Source: Bacteroidota bacterium
Lineage (GTDB): Bacteria; Bacteroidota; Bacteroidia; Flavobacteriales_F; PHOS-HE28
Length of the DNA: 64,000 nt
Assembly (NCBI GenBank): GCA_018266685.1
Contig: JAFDZY010000201.1
Span: 1,632 to 65,631, forward strand
Direction: 5' to 3'
Shown: one piece after another, positions 3,376 to 64,000 of the stretch
How the letters are laid out: every line of letters begins with the position of its first letter
Numbering within the stretch: the stretch's first letter is position 1
Notes under the pieces: model-generated
The model's input: the letters and a program-made list of their open reading frames with translations, nothing else
What the model was told of the DNA's origin: nothing
Databases searched by the model: none
Translations under genes and position numbers: made by a program

Positions 3376-4050
3376 ATGCCCACGTTCGAGCAGTTCCGGG
3401 AGCGCATCGCCAGGTTCCGGCAGGAAGGGAGAAAGATCTTCGCGAGCACCAGTTTCCAAGGGCACAGCGTGCCCATGCTGCACATGCTTTCCCGCATCGA
3501 CCCCACGGTGCCGGTGTACTATGTGAACACGGGTTACTTGTTCCCGGAAACACTGCGGTTCCGCGATGCGCTGAAGAAGCTGCTGGGCTTGAACTTCGTG
3601 CAGTTGCGACCGTTGATCTCCAAGAGCCAGCAGCTCAATGCAGAAGGACTCCTGATGTACAGCTGGGACCCGGACCGGGACAGCTACCTGAACAAGGTGC
3701 AACCCATGGAGCGCGTGCTGGCCGAGCATGATGTGTGGATCAACGGCGTGCGCGCCGAGCAGAGCGCCACCCGCAAGGCCATGCACGTGGAGCAGCCTGC
3801 GGCATACGGGTGCTTGCGCTACCACCCCATGCTGGACTGGACCTCGAAGATGGTGCACGCCTACATCAAGGAGCACCACCTGCCGCCGCATCCCTTGGAG
3901 GCCGAAGGTTACCTGAGCATCGGCGACATGCCAAGCACCCGCAAGGCGATGGAAGGCTATGATGAGCGCACCAGCCGCTGGTACGGGCTGAAGAAAACCG
4001 AATGCGGGCTGAACACCGACCTGGGCGCAGACAAGATCAAACAACCATGA
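3376..4050 (+). CDS. cysH: Phosphoadenosine phosphosulfate (PAPS/APS) reductase
   Basis: 224 aa with a PP-loop-like STSFQGHSVPMLHML, WINGVRAEQSATR and the C-terminal ECGL motif (KKTECGLN). Confidence 0.85.
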   Translation: MPTFEQFRERIARFRQEGRKIFASTSFQGHSVPMLHMLSRIDPTVPVYYVNTGYLFPETLRFRDALKKLLGLNFVQLRPLISKSQQLNAEGLLMYSWDPDRDSYLNKVQPMERVLAEHDVWINGVRAEQSATRKAMHVEQPAAYGCLRYHPMLDWTSKMVHAYIKEHHLPPHPLEAEGYLSIGDMPSTRKAMEGYDERTSRWYGLKKTECGLNTDLGADKIKQP

Positions 4051-4964
4051 AAGTATTGGTAACTGGTGGTGCAGGCTATATCGGCGCGGAGCTTTGTGCA
4101 GGGCTGGCGCGGGATGAACGGGTGGAGGAGCTGGTGGTATACGACCTGCTGGACCGCGGCAATTTTGGCCTGTTCATGGGAGCCAGGCTGGGTGGCGCCA
4201 AAGTGCGCTTCGTGCAAGCCGACGTGCTGGATTCGCGGCGCTTGTTGCAGGAACTTGCCGGGTGCGACATGGTATACCACCTTGCGGCCAAGGTCACTAC
4301 GCCCTTTGCGGACGCGGGCTCCAGCCAGTTTGAGCAAGTGAACCACTGGGGCACGGCGGAGGTGGTGTATGCGATCGAGGAGGTGGCGCCCAAGGCGCGC
4401 GTGGTGTACCTGAGCAGTGCCTCGGTCTATGGCCAGGGCAAGGGCTCCGCCCTGGACCCGGTAAAGCCATCGCCGCGGTCCGCGTACGGCCATTCCAAGT
4501 TGCGCGGGGAGGCCCACATGGAGCGGCTGGGAGACAACCAGTCGGTGCTGGTGCTGCGCTCCGCAAACGTGTATGGGCCCGGGCGCAGCATGCGGTTTGA
4601 TGCGGTGATCAACCGCTTGTTGTTTCAGGCGCATTTTCAAGGGCGCGTAACGGTGCGCGGAAGCGGGGAGCAAAAGCGGCCGTTCATCCACGTGGATGCC
4701 GTGGTGGGCACGCTGCTGGCGGCGCTTTCGCCCGGAAGCCCCTTGGGCACCTATGACCTGGTGGAGCATTCATACTCCATTCTCCAATTGGTGGAGGCCC
4801 TGCGCGGTCATTACCCCGAGACCGAACTGCTGTTTGTGGACCAACACTTGGGGCTGATGAGCATGGAAGTGGCGCGGGATGCGCGCTTGGCAGGGCTGCA
4901 ACCACATCGCAACCGCACGCTGGAACAGGACCTGCAAGCATTTGGTGCGCAAATGGCCTGGTGA
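4047..4964 (+). CDS. NAD-dependent epimerase/dehydratase (extended SDR)
   Basis: MKVLVTGGAGYIG Rossmann motif and YGHSK (YxxxK). The start overlaps the cysH stop (ATGA at 4047-4050). Confidence 0.85.
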   Translation: MKVLVTGGAGYIGAELCAGLARDERVEELVVYDLLDRGNFGLFMGARLGGAKVRFVQADVLDSRRLLQELAGCDMVYHLAAKVTTPFADAGSSQFEQVNHWGTAEVVYAIEEVAPKARVVYLSSASVYGQGKGSALDPVKPSPRSAYGHSKLRGEAHMERLGDNQSVLVLRSANVYGPGRSMRFDAVINRLLFQAHFQGRVTVRGSGEQKRPFIHVDAVVGTLLAALSPGSPLGTYDLVEHSYSILQLVEALRGHYPETELLFVDQHLGLMSMEVARDARLAGLQPHRNRTLEQDLQAFGAQMAW

Positions 4965-10615: not shown

Positions 10616-11719
10616 TTGATCGACACCACTGTGCTATTCCTGCTGGCCGCTGCCGTGGTAGTGCTGGCTTTCTTCCACTTGGCCATCTTCAGCCGCCTGG
10701 CCTTCCGCAGGCAGGAGGTGGAGCCGGACCGTGACCTGCCCGTGAGCGTGGTGGTGTGCGGGCGCAATGAAAGCATGGCGTTGCAGCAGCTCATTCCGCT
10801 GTTGCTGGACCAGGACCACAAGGAATTCGAACTGATCGTGGTGAACGACCGCAGCGATGACGACACGTGGGAAGTGCTCCAATGGATGAAGGCGGAGCAT
10901 CCGCGGTTGAGGCCGGTGAACATCCAGGCGGACGAGAAGTTCAGCTATGGAAAGAAGATCGCACTGGGCGTGGGCGTGCGCAGTGCCAAATATCCGAACG
11001 TGCTGGTTACCGATGCCGATTGCCTGCCGGTGGGCCGCGATTGGATCAGCGTGATGGCCGCAGGCTTTGCCGGGAAACGCCAGATCGTGATCGGCCATAG
11101 CCCTTACGAGCGCCAGCCCGGCCTTACCAACCTGTTGGAGCGCTATGACGGGTTCAGCAAGGCCGTGCAGTACATCAGCTTTGCCCAGGCCGGGCTGCCC
11201 TACATGGGCGTGGGCCGCAACATGGCCTTCACCGGCGACCTCTTCTTCGCCGCCAAGGGCCAGCACCGGCACCGCCAGTTGATGAGCGGGGACGACGACC
11301 TCTTCATCAATGAAGTGGCCCGCGCCAACAACGCGGCGGCAGTGGCCGACGGGCGCTCGTACATGACCACGCGCGCCACGCCGGACCTGGCCACATGGTT
11401 CCGCCGCAAGCGCAGGCATTACACCACCGCGCAGTTCTACCGCTTTGGGCACCAACTGTTGCTTACCCTTCTGCCTGCCGCCCGATTGGTGCTGTGGGCC
11501 ACCATCCTGTTCCTGTTCATCAGCGGACATTTCGTGCCTGCACTTGCCGGGCTGGCAATTGAACTGCTCGTGTTCCTGCCCATCGGTATGCTCGCCATGC
11601 GCAAGCTGGGCGCCGGGCGGATCATTTGGCTCAGCCTGCCCTTGGAATGGCTGTTTCTACTTTTGGATCCCTGCATTTACGTCAGCACGCTCATCATCAA
11701 GCCGCAACGATGGAAGTGA
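10616..11719 (+). CDS. Family 2 glycosyltransferase with C-terminal membrane helices
   Basis: VSVVVCGRNE, ELIVVNDRSDDDT and TDADC (DxD-like) are GT2 signatures. An N-terminal TM helix and C-terminal TM helices are present. Confidence 0.85.
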   Translation: MIDTTVLFLLAAAVVVLAFFHLAIFSRLAFRRQEVEPDRDLPVSVVVCGRNESMALQQLIPLLLDQDHKEFELIVVNDRSDDDTWEVLQWMKAEHPRLRPVNIQADEKFSYGKKIALGVGVRSAKYPNVLVTDADCLPVGRDWISVMAAGFAGKRQIVIGHSPYERQPGLTNLLERYDGFSKAVQYISFAQAGLPYMGVGRNMAFTGDLFFAAKGQHRHRQLMSGDDDLFINEVARANNAAAVADGRSYMTTRATPDLATWFRRKRRHYTTAQFYRFGHQLLLTLLPAARLVLWATILFLFISGHFVPALAGLAIELLVFLPIGMLAMRKLGAGRIIWLSLPLEWLFLLLDPCIYVSTLIIKPQRWK

Positions 11720-13784: not shown

Positions 13785-15602
13785 TCAGGCCAGGTCCAGC
13801 TGCAACCGGCTCAAGGAACTGTACATGCCGTTCTTCGCGATCAATTCGTCATGGGTGCCACTTTCGGCCACCACGCCCTTGTCCAGCACCAAGATCTTGT
13901 CCGCATGTCGGATCGTGCTGAGCCGGTGGGCGATCACAATGCTGGTGCGGCCCTTCATCAATTCATCCAGCGCTTCCTGCACCAGGCGTTCACTTTCGCT
14001 GTCCAAGGCGCTGGTGGCCTCGTCCAGGATCAGGATGGCGGGGTCCTTCAGCACGGCGCGTGCAATGGCGATGCGCTGGCGTTGGCCGCCGCTCAACTGC
14101 ACCCCCCGTTCGCCCACCACGGTATCGTAGCCCTGCGGGAATTGGCTAATGAACGCGTGTGCATTGGCCTTGCGTGCCGCCGTTTCGATCTCTTCCTGTG
14201 CTGCTCCCGGCTTGCCGTAGGAAATGTTTTCGCGGATGGTGCCGCCGAAGAGCAGCACTTCCTGCGGCACAATGGCCATGCGGTCGCGCAGTGCGGTGAG
14301 CGGGTACTCCCGCGCATCCTTGCCGTCGATCAGCACGGCCCCGCCCACGGGGTCGTAAAAGCGGAGCACCAGCGAGGCAATGGTGCTTTTGCCCGCACCG
14401 CTGGGTCCCACCAGGGCGATGCGCTGCCCCGGTTCGGCGTTGAAGGAAACTCCGTGAAGCACGGAGAGGTCGGGCCGTGAGGCGTAATGGAAGTCCACCT
14501 GGTTGAAAACGATGCTGCCTTTCAGCGCGAGGTGGTGGTGCTTCACGCCGAGATGAACGGGTTCCGCTGTTTCATCGTGCAGGTCCATCAATCGTTCCGT
14601 GGCGCCCACGGCCTTCAGCAAGGAGGTGACCTGCTCCGGGATCCCGGCAATGCTGGCGCCGATCATGATGCTGAAAGCCACAAAGCTGGTGATCTCCCCC
14701 ATGCTCATCAGGCCTGCATCCTTCAGCAGCGCGGCGCGGTACACCACGAACACGATCACTCCGAACATGCAGAAGATCACGAAGCTGATGAAGCCGCCCC
14801 GCCACCGCAGCGCCAGGAGCGCCAGCCGCCGGGCCTCCTGCACGCTGGAGTCGTAGCGCCGGGTCTCGAAGCCCTCGTTGCTGAACGCCTTCACGCTTTG
14901 GATGCCCTGCAGGGTCTCGTCCACGATCACATTGCTATCCGCAATGCGGTCCTGCACTTGTTTGCTCAGTTTGCGGATGAAGCGGCCGAAGAATACCGCC
15001 ACCAGCATCACCACGGGCAGGGTGGCCAGCATGGTGAGCATCAGCTCGGCGCTGAGGTAGGTGAGCGCGGCAATGCACACCACGATCACCACGAATTGCC
15101 GCAGGAACTCGGCCAGCACGGTGGTAAATGCGGTTTGCAGCAACGTGACATCGGCGCTGATGCGGCTGTTCAATTCGCCCACCCGGCGCTGGGCGAAGAA
15201 GGTCATAGGCAGCCGCAGTAGGTGTGCATAGGTGTCGCGCCGCAAGTGGGTCAAGGCGTTCTCCGTTACCGAGCCGAAGGTCCAGATGCGCCAGAAACCG
15301 AAAAAGGCCTGGGCTGCAAACACCAGCAGCAGCAGTTTCAGGATGGAATGCACATTGCTCATGTCGCCTATCGGAGCCTGCCAAAAGGTGGTGGTGGCCT
15401 TGGCATCGATCAATTTGCCGATGAGCCAGGGGAAGGCCGCGCTCAGCAGGCTGGTGAGGAGCAGGCAGCCCATGCCCAGGGCGAACAGGCCACGCTGGGC
15501 GCGCATATAGCGGAACACCCGGAAGAACTTGCGCAATGCGGCCTTGGAGAGCTTGGCGGGTTTTGCTCCGTCATCCTTTGCCGCCCCTCGTCTGGATGCC
15601 AT
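13785..15602 (-). CDS. ABC transporter, fused permease/ATP-binding protein (MsbA/lipid-exporter type)
   Basis: 605 aa. Six N-terminal TM helices, Walker A GPSGAGKST, signature LSGGQRQR and Walker B ILILDEATSALD. Confidence 0.9.
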   Translation of the reverse strand: MASRRGAAKDDGAKPAKLSKAALRKFFRVFRYMRAQRGLFALGMGCLLLTSLLSAAFPWLIGKLIDAKATTTFWQAPIGDMSNVHSILKLLLLVFAAQAFFGFWRIWTFGSVTENALTHLRRDTYAHLLRLPMTFFAQRRVGELNSRISADVTLLQTAFTTVLAEFLRQFVVIVVCIAALTYLSAELMLTMLATLPVVMLVAVFFGRFIRKLSKQVQDRIADSNVIVDETLQGIQSVKAFSNEGFETRRYDSSVQEARRLALLALRWRGGFISFVIFCMFGVIVFVVYRAALLKDAGLMSMGEITSFVAFSIMIGASIAGIPEQVTSLLKAVGATERLMDLHDETAEPVHLGVKHHHLALKGSIVFNQVDFHYASRPDLSVLHGVSFNAEPGQRIALVGPSGAGKSTIASLVLRFYDPVGGAVLIDGKDAREYPLTALRDRMAIVPQEVLLFGGTIRENISYGKPGAAQEEIETAARKANAHAFISQFPQGYDTVVGERGVQLSGGQRQRIAIARAVLKDPAILILDEATSALDSESERLVQEALDELMKGRTSIVIAHRLSTIRHADKILVLDKGVVAESGTHDELIAKNGMYSSLSRLQLDLA

Positions 15603-56754: not shown

Positions 56755-57825
56755 TTATGCGATTGTGATTCCCTTGTCCAAGTACACGTCCTGGATGGCG
56801 TTGAGCAGTTGCACGCCCTCCTTCATGGGGCGTTGGAAAGCCTTGCGGCCACTGATGAGGCCCTGGCCCCCGGCACGCTTGTTCACCACGGCGGTCTTCA
56901 CGGCTTCGGCCAGGTCGCTGGCACCGCTGCTGGCCCCTCCGCTGTTGATCAGGCCAATGCGGCCCATGTAGCAGTTGGCCACTTGGTAGCGGCACAGGTC
57001 GATGGGGTGGTCCGTGGTGAGGTCGCTGTATACCTTCTTGTGCGTTTTGCCGTAGCCTTTTATGGCGTTGTAGCCACCGTTGGTTTCGGGCAGCTTCTGC
57101 TTGATGATGTCGGCCTGTATGGTGACGCCCAAGTGGTTGGCCTGGCCGGTGAGGTCGGCGGCCGTGTGGTAATCATGGCCGTCCACCTTAAAGCCCGGGT
57201 TGCGCAGGTAGCACCAGAGGATGGTGGCCATGCCCAGCTCATGGGCATATTGGAATGCTTGGGCCACCTCGGTGATCTGCCGGGTACTTTCCTCGCTGCC
57301 GAAGTAGATGGTGGCACCCACAGCTACCGCGCCCATGTCCCACGCGCTTTCCACGGTGCCGAACATCACCTGGTCGAATTTGTTCGGCAGGGTCATCAGT
57401 TCGTTGTGGTTGATCTTCACGATGAAGGGGATCTTGTGGGCGTACTTGCGCGCCACGCTGCCCAGCACGCCGTAGGTGGAGGCCACGGCATTGCAGCCGC
57501 CTTCCATGGCGAGTTCCACGATCTTGTCACCGTCGAAATAAATGGGGTTGGGCGCGAAGCTGGCCCCGGCGCTGTGCTCAATGCCTTGGTCCACCGGCAG
57601 GATGCTCATGTAGCCTGTGTTGGCCAACCTTCCGTTGCCGTACAGTGCCTGGATGCTGCGCATCACTTGCGGCGAACGGTTGCTGAGGCCGAAGCAACGG
57701 TCCGTGAAATCAGGGCCCGGCAGGTTCAACTGGTCCTTTTTGATGGTGGTGCAGGTGTGGCTCAGCAGCGATTTGGCATCGCTGCCCAGTAACTCGGTCA
57801 ATTTTCCTGTTTTTAGGGTTGTCAT
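56755..57825 (-). CDS. Class I fructose-bisphosphate aldolase (FbaB/DhnA type)
   Basis: 356 aa from the internal [34 protein letters not shown] and GRKAFQRP are typical of the DeoC/FbaB class I family. Confidence 0.85.
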
Positions 57826-58119
57826 ATCGCGGTCAGGTAGGTATTGGGCCGCGAAGTTAGCCCCTGAACAGGTGCCGGGAATGAGCGGAAGAGGCGAGGG
57901 CATCTAATTCTTCCGATTGATCACATCAATAGTAACAAGCAGGCCCGAACGGCCATTGCTTTGGTCGGTCGACCTTGCGCCCAAGATAGACGACACGATC
58001 GGGATATGCGAGAGGCCATTGATCCGGTTGGGATGCAGGTTCCGAGAGAGCTATGGATACTGATGCATCATCAGGAGGACGGAAACATTGCTGCGTTACA
58101 TTAACACTGCTATCACTTA

Positions 58120-58257
58120 ATGATAGACGACATCCGCCCAACGTGGTTGTACCTTCGCCATACGGGAAATGTTAACATGGGCAGCATGCTACAACTCTCT
58201 CTTGAAGTGCTTCAGCCGATGGCGGAATTTGATATCATGGCCAATCGCTCCACCTAA
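58120..58257 (+). CDS. Tentative 45-aa small ORF abutting the nucleotidyltransferase gene
   Basis: MIDDIRPTWLYLRHTGNVNMGSMLQLSLEVLQPMAEFDIMANRST. An internal in-frame ATG at 58177 would give 26 aa. The stop TAA (58255-58257) shares one nucleotide with the ATG at 58257 (TAATG). No homology evidence. Confidence 0.2.
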   Translation: MIDDIRPTWLYLRHTGNVNMGSMLQLSLEVLQPMAEFDIMANRST

Positions 58258-59831
58258 TGAATGATGTCCCTTTGGAATCAAGGCCTCGCGATTCCGTCGT
58301 CATCAGAACGACGATTTCATTCCTCGCGAGGATGGAACTCAATATCGAAGGTGTAGCCTTGATGGGAAGCCGGGCAAAGAATCAAGCGCATGAGCACTCA
58401 GATTACGATCTTCTTGTACTTTCCAATTCAACTAGAACCTTACACATCGAGGATGTGATGCTCAATGGCCATAAAGTTCAACTATTCATACTCCCGCTGA
58501 AATGCATCGACACATTCCTGGTTCTAAACACAGTCGCGGGCACTGGCACATTGGCTTCTACTTTTGATCCTATCGATATTTTTCAAGGGGTTTCGATATT
58601 CGCAAGAATAAAATCCAATCTAAATACAAACTTGCAAACGATGGGAAAAATGGAGATTGAATCCGTTAATCGAAACGTCAACAGACTTCGCAATCGTGTC
58701 TCGAATTTGGTCAAGGACTTGAATAATACGACCAATGCGGATGAAGACTCGTATACTGGTGCTGAGCTATTCAAGGCCGCCGGGCAATTCCTTCTCGCTA
58801 AGAAATCCCCCTTCTTTATGCGGATCGGAAAGCATTTGCATAAAGAGTTGATTAAGTTCTACCCAAAACATACGGTGAAGGAATTAACTGAAGCATACAG
58901 CAGATCAGTGGTAAAGGGGGACTATTCGGATTTTTCGACATATTGCAAGGATATCGTGCTTGATGGCCATTTATTGCGATTTTCATCTTCTTCGAATTCC
59001 TGTTTCGAGTTGAAGGCAAGTCTTGGATGCCATATTGTGTTCATCAATTCTTACAGCAGGAAAATTACTACCCTCATGTACTCCATTCTCAAAAATAACC
59101 GGCCACAGTTAATTCTGAACCAAGAACGCGACCTACTCCATGTAGGAGTGTATTTCATTGTGGATATCAAAGATTTCAGTGATTTTCTCGTTGATTTCAA
59201 GAATCTTTCGTTGTCCCGAAGTGAGTCAAATTCCATTACGTTGAACTATCAACTTGATTACTTTCTGCTTCAGCGTTTCAAGAAGTATGACCATGACGGA
59301 TTACTTGTAAACTTGTCGAAGTATGTCATGGACAATGAAATGCAGAGAGACCTGATCATGAATTCGGTTCTTGATTGGATTCTGAATGCTGGGATTTCAA
59401 TCTTCGGCAGGGAGGAATATATGGACTATGTAAAAATATGTTGTGGGATGTATGCCTCCTCAATGACTCATGAACCGAACGAATTCGATCTCAATCGCAT
59501 CTCCGAGCGGAATGAACTTCTGAACCGTGACCTTGAGAAACTGGATCTATCATCGATTACCGAGCGATATCGGGAGGTCTTGAGCAAATGGAGTTGCCGG
59601 GACTTGGCGAACGGAGATATGAGGAAGGCCATCGTGGAGTCATATCGGATAACGTTGCCTTCAACGGAGTATCATTCGGTCTTTGAGAAGAACCCCGCCT
59701 CATTCAGTAATTTCTACCACCTGTTCGAATCGGTCTTCAATGCCACCTTATTGACCTATCGAGACAGAGGTCTGATCTACCATTCATTGATGAGCGTCCT
59801 GTGCCCAAGAGGTGGATTGCAAAGGAGATGA
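58257..59831 (+). CDS. Pol-beta superfamily (minimal) nucleotidyltransferase domain protein with a long unassigned C-terminal region
   Basis: 524 aa. The NTase signature LMGSRAKNQAHEHSDYDLLVL (G37-S38, D49, D51; nt 58365-58409) is followed by IEDVMLNGHKVQLFIL. The remaining ~400 aa are helical-looking and unassigned. This is the most AT-rich gene in the window. Confidence 0.8.
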   Translation: MNDVPLESRPRDSVVIRTTISFLARMELNIEGVALMGSRAKNQAHEHSDYDLLVLSNSTRTLHIEDVMLNGHKVQLFILPLKCIDTFLVLNTVAGTGTLASTFDPIDIFQGVSIFARIKSNLNTNLQTMGKMEIESVNRNVNRLRNRVSNLVKDLNNTTNADEDSYTGAELFKAAGQFLLAKKSPFFMRIGKHLHKELIKFYPKHTVKELTEAYSRSVVKGDYSDFSTYCKDIVLDGHLLRFSSSSNSCFELKASLGCHIVFINSYSRKITTLMYSILKNNRPQLILNQERDLLHVGVYFIVDIKDFSDFLVDFKNLSLSRSESNSITLNYQLDYFLLQRFKKYDHDGLLVNLSKYVMDNEMQRDLIMNSVLDWILNAGISIFGREEYMDYVKICCGMYASSMTHEPNEFDLNRISERNELLNRDLEKLDLSSITERYREVLSKWSCRDLANGDMRKAIVESYRITLPSTEYHSVFEKNPASFSNFYHLFESVFNATLLTYRDRGLIYHSLMSVLCPRGGLQRR

Positions 59832-59906
59832 TCACCGCACCGTTTCACGCGGCAGACCTGTAACGGGATATGTGATAGCGGAGGACATCGACCTATTATT
59901 GCAAAT

Positions 59907-60461
59907 GTGGCCATGCCGCCTCTGCCTTGGAAGGTCTGTAACTGTAATAGCCACAACCCTGAAACAAACGTTTTGGAAACATCAGAATATGACACTCTTA
60001 GGGACGGTCTGCATCCTTTCGAGGATGGGGCCGGATTTCCGACTGCCAGACAAGAGAACACGCACGATTGTGGATATGCTTGCGTGCATATCCTTGCTGC
60101 CTATCATGGTTTGGTAGGGATTGAATGCCCTTCGCTACCGGAAACCCACCTCTCTATAAAAGACATCATGACGTTCGCAGCGAAAGTTGGTTTCGCCACC
60201 CACGCATTTCGTACATCCTACAGTTGGCTCCGGGAGAAAGTACCGCCCCCTTACATTGTACACTGGAAAGGGGAACACTTCGTCGTCGTATACCGGATCG
60301 ACCACTCACTGGTCAGCATATCCGACCCATCTACAGGCGTATTGCGGGAAATGACGAAACAGGAGTTCGTGCGAGGTTGGCTGGGACACATAAATGGACC
60401 CGGCTCATGGAAACGCGGCGTGGTCGTGTTCTTGGAAAAGAAAGCCTCCAATGCTCAGTGA
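59907..60461 (+). CDS. Stand-alone peptidase C39-like (papain-fold, bacteriocin-processing type) protein
   Basis: 184 aa. QENTHDCGYACVHILAAYHG holds Gln49 and Cys55 (60069-60071). IVHWKGEHFVVVYRIDHSLVSISDP holds His124 and Asp140. There is no ABC transporter TMD or NBD. Confidence 0.8.
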   Translation: MAMPPLPWKVCNCNSHNPETNVLETSEYDTLRDGLHPFEDGAGFPTARQENTHDCGYACVHILAAYHGLVGIECPSLPETHLSIKDIMTFAAKVGFATHAFRTSYSWLREKVPPPYIVHWKGEHFVVVYRIDHSLVSISDPSTGVLREMTKQEFVRGWLGHINGPGSWKRGVVVFLEKKASNAQ

Positions 60462-61710
60462 ACTGTCCGGCACCGTAATGCGCATCTTCCATGCGCAGTT
60501 GGAGGCCTGTGAAGCCATGTGCTTCGCTGCGGATGAAAGTGGCAAAGCGATATCCGTCCTGATCGTGGACAGCACATACAGCTCTACCCCCAAGGTGGAA
60601 TACATGGAGCATGAGGGGCACAGCTATGAGGTCCTCTCCGTGACGGACCTCAGGATGATGTTCCGCCTTGACCATATCGAGGTCTTCGCCGGTTTTCTCA
60701 AGCGTTGTGTCGTTCTGAAAGATGAATATCAGGACCTATTCGATACAAAACGGACCTTCGGTACCATCGTTCATTCGGAGCTGAGCGGAATTGCGGACCG
60801 GCCAACTGGTGCCGGACCGGCAGCGGGAGGCCGAACCGGCCACATGTCATCAAATCATCGCAGTGGCTACTTCTCTTCAATCACCGGACCCGATGCGGCC
60901 ACTCTCGCGGACAATGCAGGCTATAGAGTCCTTTGCACGGGCATTCCTCAGATACACCGGTTCATCCGGAGACAATGCTTTGGCCTGCTCGAAGAGTTGA
61001 AGGATGTGACCCGAAGCATGGAGTTTGCATTCTACAGGAACAGCAGGCAGCCACAAAGTGTTTTCTCCATTGAACTCTTGGGCATCGACCACCTCAACAA
61101 GGCCGAGTTCGAGAAACGGCTGTCGCTCTTTTGTGCGCAGAGGAACCGGTATCCTGGCCCTGTCAACTTCCGACTCTTCAGCAGCAATTTCGGCACTGAA
61201 GCGCGAGCCGCATTCGCGATCGCAGTAAGCCGCGGAATCCTCACTGAGTTCTACCCGAAAACGACCAGCTCACAAGGCTTCACCACTGCGATAACGCCTC
61301 ATGTGGTGGCCCTACTCCTTCTGATCCTGAAAAGCGATGACCTTGGAACGGCGATGCCCACGATCGACAAGCTTGTACATGACCAGCTTCATCGCATCTT
61401 GAGAGACCAACGATCACCGGGAGAGATAACCAGCCAGGAGAAGATAGCCTATCAGCTGGACCTCCATACGGACACACAGGTCATAACGCATAAGGCCGGG
61501 ATCATGGGACAGATGGGCCATGGGCTAAGGTTCAGGAATAAGGCCATTTATGAGGACGGAATTTTCCAGGCATTCCGGCGTTGGTTGGGAACGGCCCGGC
61601 CTTCGGTGAGTGAGGCAACCGGGCTACTATTCGACTCCTTCTGCGTTTCCCCGCACCGCAGCTACTACTTCCTGAGATCGGTACAAGCGCTGTTGAATGA
61701 AAAGGGTTGA
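60451..61710 (+). CDS. Hypothetical protein, 419 aa, no recognisable motif
   Basis: Start at MLSELSGTVMRIF, overlapping the C39 gene by 11 nt. Its end overlaps the next gene by 14 nt. Coding is supported by operon compaction only. Confidence 0.65.
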   Translation: MLSELSGTVMRIFHAQLEACEAMCFAADESGKAISVLIVDSTYSSTPKVEYMEHEGHSYEVLSVTDLRMMFRLDHIEVFAGFLKRCVVLKDEYQDLFDTKRTFGTIVHSELSGIADRPTGAGPAAGGRTGHMSSNHRSGYFSSITGPDAATLADNAGYRVLCTGIPQIHRFIRRQCFGLLEELKDVTRSMEFAFYRNSRQPQSVFSIELLGIDHLNKAEFEKRLSLFCAQRNRYPGPVNFRLFSSNFGTEARAAFAIAVSRGILTEFYPKTTSSQGFTTAITPHVVALLLLILKSDDLGTAMPTIDKLVHDQLHRILRDQRSPGEITSQEKIAYQLDLHTDTQVITHKAGIMGQMGHGLRFRNKAIYEDGIFQAFRRWLGTARPSVSEATGLLFDSFCVSPHRSYYFLRSVQALLNEKG

Positions 61711-62779
61711 CATCCATACGCTCTTCTGGTACTGCGAGAACTCACCGATGTGCGTTCAGAAGCATCCGTTCGCGGACCTGTACATCTTCGGGTATTATCG
61801 GGACTCAACGAAATACAACTACTACCGTTGGGATGTGACGAACTCAATCTGTAGGGGATTGATCACCGATCTGGAAGGGAATATAGTGCAACGCCCCTTC
61901 GCAAAGTTCTGGACCTTCAAGCAGTATCTGGCCCAAGACCTTCTTCTCCTGAGTGAGGGCCAGACCAAGATTATCGACTCCCCGGTTCGGGCCATGCACG
62001 AGAAGGTGGATGGAACGATGGGGGTGCTTTATTGGGTGGATGACGTGCCGTACATAGCTGCACAGCGTTCATTCACCAATGCGAAAGCGCTGAAGGGTAC
62101 GCAGATCCTGCATACAAAGTATGCCCACCTCTTTCATCGGTTCGACCGGTCCCTTACCTACATTTTCGAGATCATCTACAAGGAAACAGCCATCCTCGTG
62201 GAGTATGACATGGATGAAGAACTGGTTCTGATCGGCATGGTCGAGACCACATCAGGCCACTCGCTTTCACTGGAAAGCTGCACACTGGGCTTCAGAACGG
62301 CCCGCATACTCACACCTCAATACGGGGCATATGCGAATGACCTTGGTAAACTGGAATCGCTGGACCTCCCGAACGCAGAAGGGTTCGTGGTCACCTACGA
62401 GGACGAAAGCCGCGTGAAGGTCAAATTCCCCACGTTCAGGAAAGCCCATGCCGGCTTCGCCAGACTTCTGGCCTGCCGGAGGGCATTGGCACTTGCCGAG
62501 CACGCCATGTTCCCCGAAGGTGTACGATCACATTTCCTAGGAACAGAAGTAAACACATGGTCTGAGCAGGAGTTCCATGATGCCATGGCACGCTCAAGGC
62601 CGATCCAACACATGGTCGGCTTTGACTATTGGATGGAGTACTGGCATACGTGGCAAAAGAAGGACAACGACATTCCAAGGTTCGACGAGCTTGTCGGTAG
62701 CGCATTTAACTTGGAGCAACGGTTGCAGGAGGAACACGTGCATGACACACAAACGTGGAAATGGAAACTGCTGAGATAG
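61697..62779 (+). CDS. ATP-dependent RNA ligase, T4 Rnl1/Trl1-ligase-like (covalent nucleotidyltransferase superfamily)
   Basis: 360 aa. Motif I HEKVDGT (Lys103 at 62003-62005), motif III YIFEIIY, motif IV AEGFVVTY and motif V RVKVKF. Upstream is CRGLITDLEGNIVQRPFAKFW. Met18 (61748) is an alternative start. Confidence 0.8.
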   Translation: MKRVDIHTLFWYCENSPMCVQKHPFADLYIFGYYRDSTKYNYYRWDVTNSICRGLITDLEGNIVQRPFAKFWTFKQYLAQDLLLLSEGQTKIIDSPVRAMHEKVDGTMGVLYWVDDVPYIAAQRSFTNAKALKGTQILHTKYAHLFHRFDRSLTYIFEIIYKETAILVEYDMDEELVLIGMVETTSGHSLSLESCTLGFRTARILTPQYGAYANDLGKLESLDLPNAEGFVVTYEDESRVKVKFPTFRKAHAGFARLLACRRALALAEHAMFPEGVRSHFLGTEVNTWSEQEFHDAMARSRPIQHMVGFDYWMEYWHTWQKKDNDIPRFDELVGSAFNLEQRLQEEHVHDTQTWKWKLLR

Positions 62780-63915
62780 CGATCTCCTGCGGGGTGGTAC
62801 TCCTCCACCGGGACAAGATCCTGCTCGTGAAGCACACCAGTGCATACGGAGGGGGCTACTCGATTCCAAAGGGGAAACTGGAGGAAGGCGAGACCATCCG
62901 CGCTTGTGCCCTGCGCGAGTTCATCGAGGAAACGGGTGTCATCCTTCAGGACAAGGACCTTTCACGTTTCCCCGAAGTGCTGCACATCATGGACCGGGAG
63001 GGGCGTGTGGTGAAAAGGGTGTACTATTTCATTGCTCGCGTGGACCTGGAAGCCCTGCTCAAGCATGGAGCCATAACAGCCAACAGGGATGTCCAAGAGA
63101 TTGATAGCATCCGATTGGTCACGTTCGAGCAAGGGGAGGCTCTGCTCCCCCATTCACAGCTTTCGGTCCTTCACCATATCGGCCACCGCTTCTCGCCCAA
63201 GGAGCTATTGTTCCTCCTTAAGTCGAAATTCATTACCCGGAACCTTGACCTGGAAACTGGCTTATATATCTACAACTACTCGAAACGCTGCAAGGAGACC
63301 AACTACTGGAACTATACTACACTGAGTTGCCGCGGCTTGGTCCTTGACCGGAACTTCAACGTGGTCGCACGGCCATTCAAGAAGTTTTTTGAGTGGCGCC
63401 AGCTACTTCCGGAACTACAGAGCTATCTCTTGTCCATCCGGCCCAAACTTTCGGTCAGGTCATACGAGAAGATAGACGGGACCTTGATCCTGCTGTTCAA
63501 TTATCAGGGACGTTGGATCCTTACCACTAGGAGGCGCTTCGACCTCATCCAGTCACATCATGCACGGATCTTGTTCAATCGACAATTGAGCAGACCACTA
63601 TCAGCCTTGGACCCGAACCTGACATATCTATTCGAAAGCACGGTGCACTACGACTATAATGTGATAGCCTATCCTATAGAGCAATTGGTCCTAGTGTGTG
63701 CGGTAAGAACAGCCAGCGTAGAGACTTACTTTCCTGAAAGGCTCCAATGCTCATTCGAGTCAGCCATTCGCATTACTGAACCAAACTTGGATATCAAGCC
63801 AAGCAGTAATGGCAAGGAAGGACAGGTACTTTATCTAGACAACCAATACATGATCAAGGCGAAGACGGACTGGTACGTGGAGGCTCGACAGAAAATCACT
63901 AACTACGGTTCATAG
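62755..63915 (+). CDS. NUDIX hydrolase fused to a second Rnl1-like RNA ligase domain
   Basis: 386 aa. A perfect Nudix box GKLEEGETIRACALREFIEETGV lies at 62872-62940. It is followed by CRGLVLDRNFNVVARPFKKFF, motif I YEKIDGT (Lys239 at 63469-63471), YLFESTV, KEGQVLYL and MIKAKT. Confidence 0.85.
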   Translation: MEMETAEIAISCGVVLLHRDKILLVKHTSAYGGGYSIPKGKLEEGETIRACALREFIEETGVILQDKDLSRFPEVLHIMDREGRVVKRVYYFIARVDLEALLKHGAITANRDVQEIDSIRLVTFEQGEALLPHSQLSVLHHIGHRFSPKELLFLLKSKFITRNLDLETGLYIYNYSKRCKETNYWNYTTLSCRGLVLDRNFNVVARPFKKFFEWRQLLPELQSYLLSIRPKLSVRSYEKIDGTLILLFNYQGRWILTTRRRFDLIQSHHARILFNRQLSRPLSALDPNLTYLFESTVHYDYNVIAYPIEQLVLVCAVRTASVETYFPERLQCSFESAIRITEPNLDIKPSSNGKEGQVLYLDNQYMIKAKTDWYVEARQKITNYGS

Positions 63916-64000
63916 GTTCATCACCATCTTGATAGATCGTGTTTGCCGCAGTCTGCTCATTCCAAGCGTTCAATCAAGCAGCCAGGCAATGTAATGTCTA

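Follow-up and report, generated by a model that had tools for sequence, protein, structure and literature searches.

A nucleotide-enzyme operon beside a putative double-glycine-leader effector gene in an accessory island of a Flavobacteriales bacterium

Near the right end of a 64,000-nucleotide stretch of contig JAFDZY010000201.1 from a Bacteroidota bacterium, called the window in the following, five genes (g1-g5) form a compact operon whose composition raises the question of what task could bring their products together. They encode a Pol-beta-superfamily nucleotidyltransferase (NTase, g1), a stand-alone C39 cysteine peptidase (g2), an orphan protein of 419 amino acids (aa; g3), a ligase of the T4 RNA ligase 1 (Rnl1) family (g4) and a Nudix hydrolase fused to a second Rnl1-family domain (g5). 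The original prediction for this locus saw a conflict module, either anti-phage or for RNA damage and repair, in which the peptidase was an odd addition. Our evidence, which is comparative throughout, points with moderate confidence to a different answer, namely that g1-g5 is the enzyme operon of an island for double-glycine-leader antibacterial effector proteins, and a transporter-less variant of a conserved export cassette. The idea of a conflict module is retained, and on gene content this module is one of inter-bacterial effector secretion, whereas the anti-phage and RNA-repair reading is not. In the literature searched, to which the survey of Burroughs & Aravind did not belong, no paper combines these components, and within that literature the cassette is apparently undescribed.

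A leader-bearing cargo gene just past the window

An identical metagenome contig, L001, extends the window (window coordinate = L001 + 55,996) and carries a second operon, on the minus strand and convergent to g1-g5, with genes for a GNAT acetyltransferase and for proteins of 261, 274, 133 and 114 aa (Table 1). The 274-aa protein starts with MGEGEKSNLEELKNNFPTLDNVSAGKLLGG, a leader that ends in LLGG (…KLLGG). Homologs of this protein in five related loci have the leader in common and diverge after it, their aligned N-termini ending in (L/I)LGG, and the leader consensus can be written '…L(E/K)ELxxxxPx(L/I)(D/E)…K(L/I)(L/I)GG'. The mature part is 31-32% identical in the related loci L007, L009 and L012; the ligases of the same loci are 62-67% identical and the neighbouring genes 60-67%. 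Behind the leader follow a Gly/Asp/Trp-rich low-complexity stretch and a variable C-terminal domain. Across the cassettes described below these cargo proteins measure 237-398 aa and are acidic, and the mature cargo is strongly so and contains hardly any Lys or Arg (0-3% in the clade of the window). Several C-termini are peptidase-like, with HExxH motifs and, in a single protein, a Peptidase_C39_2 domain that passes the cutoff; the C-terminal domain of the L017 cargo carries HEYGH.

The association of such leaders with the cassette could be put into numbers by a hidden Markov model (HMM) of the leader, which gave N-terminal matches in 15 of 16 cassette loci (268 kb) and in none of 42 non-cassette ligase loci (553 kb). 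When only loci outside model building are counted, nine of ten were positive. The matched proteins begin MKKLNLKELELxLPxIDxxxxKI(I/L)LGG.

The partner that would act on this leader is g2, which matches Pfam Peptidase_C39 (PF03412) at 1e-19 and contains the motifs QxxxxDCG, HFVVV and SDP. The catalytic Gln/Cys/His/Asp set is present, with Q49 and C55 counted in the translation and H124 and D140 assigned by motif (HFVVV and SDP) without counting of their positions. The protein is 37-38% identical to the N-terminal C39 domain of the cassette exporters in L014-L016. We infer that g2 is a leader peptidase which cuts the 274-aa cargo after Gly-Gly. The C39 peptidase is accordingly not an odd extra, because the cargo gene just past the window bears a conserved double-glycine leader, and the exporters of related cassettes, in which C39 is fused to an ABC transporter, fit the same explanation.

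The cargo itself is probably an antibacterial effector, as its architecture, bacteriocin-like in the leader and polymorphic-toxin-like in the remainder, would suggest. It is followed by two multi-pass membrane proteins (133 and 114 aa) that vary between loci and are plausible candidates for immunity factors. Constant leader and variable C-termini place the cargo family in the pattern of polymorphic toxins, with toxin and immunity roles predicted. According to the part of Zhang et al. 2012 (PMC3482391) on which this comparison draws, polymorphic toxin systems combine a constant N-terminal trafficking part with a variable C-terminal domain (HExxH or C39-like papain fold, with Tox-PL-C39 as a described toxin domain), and this is matched by the cargo family, in which the trafficking signal is the double-glycine leader and the small variable neighbour genes may encode immunity proteins. 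The same part of that text mentions neither RNA ligase nor Nudix.

The cassette in related Bacteroidota

All contigs with a member of the g3 family keep the order C39 peptidase, g3, Rnl1 ligase and Nudix::Rnl1 fusion, and on those that reach past the fusion the convergent cargo operon comes next. In L007, L008 and L012 a long NTase gene lies beyond the cargo operon, on the opposite strand. The linkage holds at 47-56% g3 identity, even where the NTase is found at the other end (L012).

A search with the Nudix::ligase fusion led to a second tier of homologs at 30-37% identity, in Flavobacterium oreochromis, F. ardleyense, Chryseobacterium pennae, C. contaminans and C. lathyri and in metagenome-assembled genomes (MAGs) labelled Prevotellaceae, Bacteroidaceae, Bacteroidales and 'Lachnospiraceae'. 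The gene order in 11/11 of these more distant loci is NTase (~480-540 aa), C39::ABC exporter (PCAT; ~735-750 aa), a protein here called X (~410-530 aa), Rnl1 ligase and Nudix::Rnl1 ligase. Nine of the ten loci analysed also have a TolC/OEP gene and, behind the exporter, an HlyD-like gene, L016 having neither; TolC stands directly 3' of the fusion in four Bacteroidales-type loci, with a cargo gene after it in L022 and L024. Since TolC follows the fusion and HlyD follows the exporter, the ligase genes lie inside a type I secretion operon. Full-length Nudix::ligase fusions were met only in Bacteroidota and only inside cassettes, and the 42 other ligase loci contain stand-alone homologs, near which neither a long NTase nor C39/PCAT nor X is encoded (at one of them there is a small MNT-like open reading frame, ORF). 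The homologs of the operon co-localise in unrelated Bacteroidota, as the original prediction would require of a single module.

From these comparisons the canonical cassette consists of an NTase, a PCAT, HlyD, an inactive NTase paralog (X), an Rnl1-type ligase, a Nudix::Rnl1 ligase, TolC and at least one cargo gene, and the lineage of the window would possess a reduced cassette from which the exporter genes have been lost. This lineage lost ABC, HlyD and TolC yet kept the peptidase and all four nucleotide enzymes, which argues that it is the cargo, and not the transporter, that the enzymes serve.

That proteins with a double-glycine leader are exported through C39/PCAT machinery is textbook knowledge. 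The PCAT bacteriocin exporters (colicin V CvaAB-TolC, ComAB, PCAT1) share with the island the C39 Q/C/H/D set and a cargo with an N-terminal Gly-Gly leader, and with its canonical relatives also the C39::ABC, HlyD-like and TolC/OEP genes. Their C39 domain is fused to ABC, whereas g2 stands alone without ABC, HlyD or TolC, and their substrates are small peptides, whereas the cargo of the island family is a 237-398-aa acidic protein. Among PCAT systems described in the literature searched, none has a counterpart of the NTase, the pseudo-NTase, the Rnl1-type ligase or the Nudix::Rnl1 fusion. The claim that the genes belong to no named defence system was upheld by this literature and by PADLOC-DB 2.0, which gave no named anti-phage system, weak domain-level matches to the candidate families PDC-S09 and PDC-M05A (NTase motif) and PDC-S07 (Nudix domain), and no match at all for g2, g3 and g4. 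The definition of a cluster for a ribosomally synthesized and post-translationally modified peptide (RiPP) does not fit either, as the cargo has 237-398 aa with globular C-terminal domains and the 45-aa ORF upstream of g1 is not conserved.

The nucleotide enzymes and their possible role

In the NTase g1, residues 19-65 alone score above the Pfam cutoffs, with 29 bits for Polbeta and 26 bits for NTP_transf_2, and in an alignment of three ortholog sequences G37, S38, D49 and D51 do not vary. Its AlphaFold2 (AF2) model, with a predicted local distance difference test score (pLDDT) of 62, matches two-domain enzymes of the kanamycin-NTase (KNTase) type, namely 3c18 (5.7e-6), ANT(4') (2e-5), HalB (1.6e-4), LinB and AadA; 7ae9 is also among the matches. 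Comparison of g1 with the NTases of PCAT-type cassettes by hhalign gave a probability of 98.2% (E 4e-14), and g1 is predicted to be an active KNTase-type NTase orthologous to them. The minimal NTase fold with a helical domain is shared with ANT(4') and with MntA of the MntA-HepT (MNT-HEPN) type VII toxin-antitoxin system. The island NTase is four to five times larger than MntA, g1 scores 24 bits against the MntA model NF047752 (cutoff 60), and no HEPN protein is encoded in the island.

X of the PCAT-type cassettes is related to the NTase of the same cassettes from end to end (hhalign probability 98.5%, E 2e-15) and is without the GS and DxD motifs; as far as its sequence tells, it is an inactive paralog of the cassette NTase. 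In the window the position of X is occupied by g3. The original prediction left g3 as a large protein of unknown kind, and this stands in so far as Pfam, NCBIfam, PADLOC and PHROGs contain no family for it, while AF2 and Foldseek suggest a degenerate NTase. Its family comprises 12 clusters among 5.8e9 proteins, and an exhaustive HMM search of 1.84e9 representative proteins with the family returned two matches, both of them family members. The N-terminal 100 residues of the g3 model have pLDDT 65-84, and the top nine Foldseek matches are all KNTase-type NTases (E ~1e-2, prob 1.0), with 7aer among the matches; AA replaces GS and S-V-L replaces DxD. A marginal hhalign match was obtained with X of Bacteroidales (E 1.4e-3, probability 17%), and sequence comparison with X of Flavobacteriales gave no significant match. 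From the fold prediction and the one marginal match to Bacteroidales X, g3 is probably a catalytically dead NTase-fold partner of g1. A direct derivation of g3 as a paralog of g1 was tried by sequence and dropped, BLASTP and hhalign finding nothing. Sequence searches of the PDB were empty for g3, g4 and the 261-aa protein. As a separate observation, g3 diverges faster than the adjoining ligase and peptidase genes, the identities of L007/L009 with the window being 47% for g3, 44% for g1, 57-58% for g2, 63% for g4 and 67% for g5.

The second putative pair is formed by the ligases. g4 has no Pfam match and is recognised by PHROG 562 (T4 gp63/Rnl1) at 7e-28 and by TIGR02308 at 1e-4, and its ortholog in L022 matches PF09511 at 48.5 bits. 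Orthologs from different clades are 32-37% identical, and K103 (KVDG), E228-G-F-V and K241-V-K243 are invariant over ten of them. In g5, Pfam finds NUDIX (5e-16) and RNA_lig_T4_1 (PF09511; 4e-9, 37.1 bits against a cutoff of 28.3), PHROG 562 matches at 1e-33, and a profile of the family matches residues 32-256 of T4 Rnl1 (2c5u) at 1e-17. The motif I lysine of KIDG is K237 in the 384-aa form and K239 in the 386-aa form. The Nudix box, GKLEEGETIRACALREFIEETG, is invariant in 11 family members, as are KxDG, EGxV (E353-G-x-V356) and KxK (K366-x-K368). Judged by motifs I, IV and V, which are complete, g4 and g5 are predicted to be Rnl1-family adenylyltransferases. Both remain far below the TIGR02308 equivalog cutoff (21.6 and 25.2 bits against 242), and neither matches the C-terminal tRNA-binding domain of T4 Rnl1, the alignments ending near residue 256/374.

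Much of what had been read from the window holds at the level of single proteins. The residues called intact are in place (G37-S38, D49 and D51 in g1, Q49 and C55 in g2, K103 in g4, K239 and the Nudix box in g5), with H124 and D140 of g2 supported by motif. The domain labels given to g1, g2 and g5 are borne out by Pfam, and that of g4 by PHROG 562, TIGR02308 and motifs but not by Pfam.

How these enzymes could act in effector export is more speculative. In this model g2 would cleave the cargo behind Gly-Gly, and the other four proteins would work as two pairs of paralogs, g1 paired with the dead g3 and g4 paired with g5, in an ATP/NTP-dependent step that the cargo needs for its maturation or release. 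The step we prefer is O-nucleotidylation of cargo or leader by the KNTase-type NTase, after which the Nudix and ligase domains would process or extend the phosphodiester-linked group; this is a tentative proposal, less probable than the assignment of the operon to effector export. MntA, which poly-AMPylates a protein tyrosine, is a precedent for a protein-linked oligonucleotide. More tentative again is the fuller version, in which the NTase with its dead paralog nucleotidylates the effector or its leader and the ligases build a nucleotide or oligonucleotide adduct required for export, activation or delivery.

To our knowledge, Rnl1-type RNA ligases have so far figured only in RNA repair, in splicing and as laboratory reagents. 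Here an effector-export operon present in two Bacteroidota orders has two such ligases, a Nudix hydrolase and a pair of active and inactive NTases as constant, catalytically conserved members. Either covalent nucleotidyltransferases would mature secreted proteins, or RNA end-joining would be wired into bacterial warfare, and both outcomes are undescribed. If effectors did carry a nucleotide adduct, this would amount to a class of post-translational modification not known before and linked to type I secretion. The full cassette is present in cultured strains (F. ardleyense, F. oreochromis, C. lathyri, C. contaminans and C. pennae), which makes the proposal directly testable, and the new leader family with its set of Lys/Arg-poor acidic effectors can be mined for antibacterial proteins.

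Several points weigh against the assignment to effector export. No observation places the NTase, the ligases or the Nudix domain on the cargo, and the characterised enzymes of the Rnl1 family, as far as we know, all act on RNA. The island is without ABC, HlyD and TolC genes and the window without a PCAT, and L020 is a cassette locus with no cargo gene within 21 kb. Most C-terminal domains of the cargo proteins are below family thresholds, and their toxin role is a predicted one. The homology of g3 and X is not significant by sequence, confidence in the AF2 models is low to moderate (pLDDT 58 for g3, 62 for g1), and the data for the clade of the window come from metagenome assemblies throughout.

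The strongest competitor, which we nevertheless consider unlikely, is RNA repair for protection of the producer. Here the NTase, the Rnl1 ligase and the Nudix::Rnl1 protein would mend tRNA or rRNA cut by ribotoxins of competitors or by phage-triggered nucleases, and would be co-transcribed with a bacteriocin exporter only since both are needed in inter-bacterial warfare. Both ligases do belong to the family of T4 Rnl1, whose known role is tRNA repair, and the Nudix domain, with the RNA pyrophosphohydrolase YtkD as its best, weak, NCBIfam match, could convert 5'-ppp ends to ligatable 5'-p. T4 Rnl1 (gp63) has in common with g4 and g5 an adenylyltransferase domain bearing motifs I, IV and V; the island proteins differ in the missing match to the tRNA-binding domain, in the distance to the equivalog cutoff, in having no Pnkp partner and in being two paralogs, one of them Nudix-fused, whose homologs sit as a pair inside a secretion operon. 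The pairing of an NTase with a ligase, which the original prediction compared with RlaP, is a recognised theme of RNA repair (RlaP; PMC12776372), and RlaP (PF10127) operons have a Pol-beta-superfamily NTase near RNA ligases as in the island. The comparison does not extend to the proteins themselves: g1 has no PF10127 match (Pfam at E <= 0.1 gives only PF18765, PF01909 and PF04439) and is instead a KNTase-type protein of ~500 aa with an inactive paralog as partner, and in the RlaP operons that have been characterised the ligase is RtcB (PMC12776372), whereas that of the island is of Rnl1 type.

The gene content and gene order also speak against repair. None of the 16 cassette loci encodes a nuclease or an enzyme for end healing (kinase, phosphatase or cyclic phosphodiesterase), and the end-healing enzyme or nuclease that the original prediction proposed to look for beyond position 64,000 is absent, like any RNA gene, from the extended island and the related cassettes. 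In two bacterial orders the ligase genes have PCAT/HlyD on one side and TolC on the other, their reading frames overlapping, full-length Nudix::ligase fusions were met only inside the cassettes, and the cargo domains resemble peptidases rather than RNases. The variant that repair confers immunity to the toxin of the island itself was rejected, the C-termini of the cargo being variable and peptidase-like and the ligases constant.

Still less probable is that the NTase pair, the Nudix domain and the ligases make a nucleotide-containing small molecule or oligonucleotide, exported via the ABC transporter or used as an intracellular signal, with the leader proteins being independent co-cargo. In structure, g1 and g3 come closest to small-molecule O-adenylyltransferases (ANT(4'), LinB, AadA) and to the oligo-dA synthase HalB, and all four enzyme types handle phosphoanhydride or phosphodiester bonds of nucleotides. 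Yet the cassette has no further conserved biosynthetic genes, PCATs are known for export of peptides and proteins, and the lineage of the window lost the exporter and kept the enzymes together with the C39 peptidase. The least probable explanation, chance juxtaposition of two unrelated modules, a bacteriocin locus and an operon of nucleotide enzymes, carried together on mobile DNA, draws on the frequent pooling of conflict genes in accessory islands and on the separate, convergent transcription of cargo and enzyme operons in the lineage of the window, but is at odds with the interleaved order (NTase before PCAT, X and ligases between HlyD and TolC) kept in Flavobacteriales and Bacteroidales down to 30-37% protein identity, with leader-bearing cargo in 15/16 cassette loci against 0/42 others, and with a linkage that outlasts rearrangement (L012).

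The island, its boundaries and minor features

The operon is set in an island that can be delimited by comparison. It is a 9,209-bp insertion (L001 1809-11017, window ~57,805-67,013), so that the right boundary lies outside the window as had been predicted. In sibling Flavobacteriales MAGs BamA and aldolase are 125 bp apart (L069 7688-7812; also L071, L074, L077 and L078), and in blastn of the empty-site loci L069, L071, L077 and L078 against L001 the similarity ends at 1808 and is picked up again at 11018. The siblings with the empty site, GCA_018267065.1 and GCA_039810745.1 among them, have an identical S15 protein and 84-88% identity in the flanking DNA. The island is a horizontally acquired, strain-variable accessory island of an uncultured Flavobacteriales bacterium, which agrees with the island context originally proposed. 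Past it follow BamA and then a SpoU methylase, both at backbone GC. More than 20 independent contigs, among them one from the NCBI MAG GCA_018267115.1, carry an exact copy of g4 in the same layout.

The description of the operon in the original prediction was likewise accurate. The five same-strand ORFs are found in an AT-richer stretch, GC being 0.57-0.65 in the pnp-accD-aldolase backbone and 0.40-0.55 from ~57.9 kb on, and the last four genes overlap at their stop and start codons (11 nt for g2/g3, 14 nt for g3/g4, 19-25 nt for g4/g5); between g1 and g2 there is a gap of ~80 nt. Scans for sigma-70 promoters and terminators gave matches at chance level only.

Table 1. Coordinates of the genes and other features of the island, in window numbering unless L001 is named
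Feature	Position	Strand	Length (aa)	Remarks
Left island edge and non-coding leader of g1	57805-58256	.		Similarity to island-free siblings ends at ~57,804; GC falls here
45-aa ORF	58120-58257	+	45	Stop overlaps g1 start (TAATG); called by gene finders on all identical contigs
g1	58257-59831	+	524	Predicted Pol-beta-superfamily NTase of KNTase type; ~280-aa C-terminal extension
g2	59907 (GTG) or 59913 (ATG)-60461	+	182-184	Stand-alone C39 cysteine peptidase
g3	60451-61710	+	419	Orphan; probable dead NTase-fold protein
g4	61697-62779	+	360	Rnl1 (T4 gp63)-family ATP-dependent ligase/adenylyltransferase; own C-terminal domain
g5	62755 (GTG) or 62761 (ATG)-63915	+	386/384	Nudix hydrolase fused to second Rnl1-family adenylyltransferase domain; gene callers start at ATG 62761
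114-aa multi-pass membrane protein	L001 7974-8318; 3' end at window 63970-64000	-	114	Candidate immunity protein; last gene of second operon
133-aa multi-pass membrane protein	64,396-64,797 (window-equivalent)	-	133	Candidate immunity protein
274-aa cargo protein	64,739-65,563 (window-equivalent; L001 8743-9567)	-	274	Double-glycine leader
261-aa protein	65,563-66,348 (window-equivalent; L001 9567-10352)	-	261	Two repeats of ~125 aa
GNAT acetyltransferase	66,446-66,910 (window-equivalent; L001 10450-10914)	-		Acetyltransf_1, 8e-7

Carriage by a prophage, which the original prediction had named as an outcome that would count against it, or by a plasmid was considered and rejected: no phage or plasmid record contains the Nudix::ligase fusion at 80% coverage or more, such records giving generic RNA-ligase domains only, and the extended island has no integrase and no phage structural genes. 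It also has no tRNA, no Rfam match above noise and no flanking repeats.

The 45-aa ORF in front of g1 matches no family and has no tblastn homolog in the g1-ortholog loci L007, L011 and L012, of which L011 begins within the g1 ortholog and offers no upstream sequence. It is probably a spurious call and not a gene. A role as RiPP precursor was rejected, the ORF being neither conserved nor equipped with a GG motif. The only PCAT-like match in the window is an ABC exporter without C39 domain at 13797-15269 (-), 30% identical to residues 244-732 of a cassette PCAT; nothing links this exporter to the island.

In the second operon, the 261-aa protein has no family (only a borderline DUF6324 match over 22 residues); it is 51-71% conserved in the clade of the window, is translationally coupled to the cargo gene and is absent from PCAT-type cassettes. 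A GNAT acetyltransferase gene heads the same operon as the Lys/Arg-poor cargo; on most contigs compared automatic gene calls prefer a plus-strand ORF of 117 aa (L001 10640-10993) over this minus-strand gene. L017, a relative with 51% g5 identity, has a GNAT-like gene directly after the Nudix::ligase gene and a SIR2_2-domain protein (4023-4904, -) just upstream of its homolog of the 261-aa protein. In L016 (577-3468, -) two paralogous HExxH cargo genes with leaders of identical type flank a 188-aa leucine-rich repeat (LRR) protein, a candidate immunity gene, and this block lies directly upstream of the NTase and divergent from it. A large non-ribosomal peptide synthetase (NRPS) gene is located ~5 kb downstream of the F. 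oreochromis cassette (L014 16763-21284, +), with small phage-like genes (DUF5675, DUF6943) between the two.

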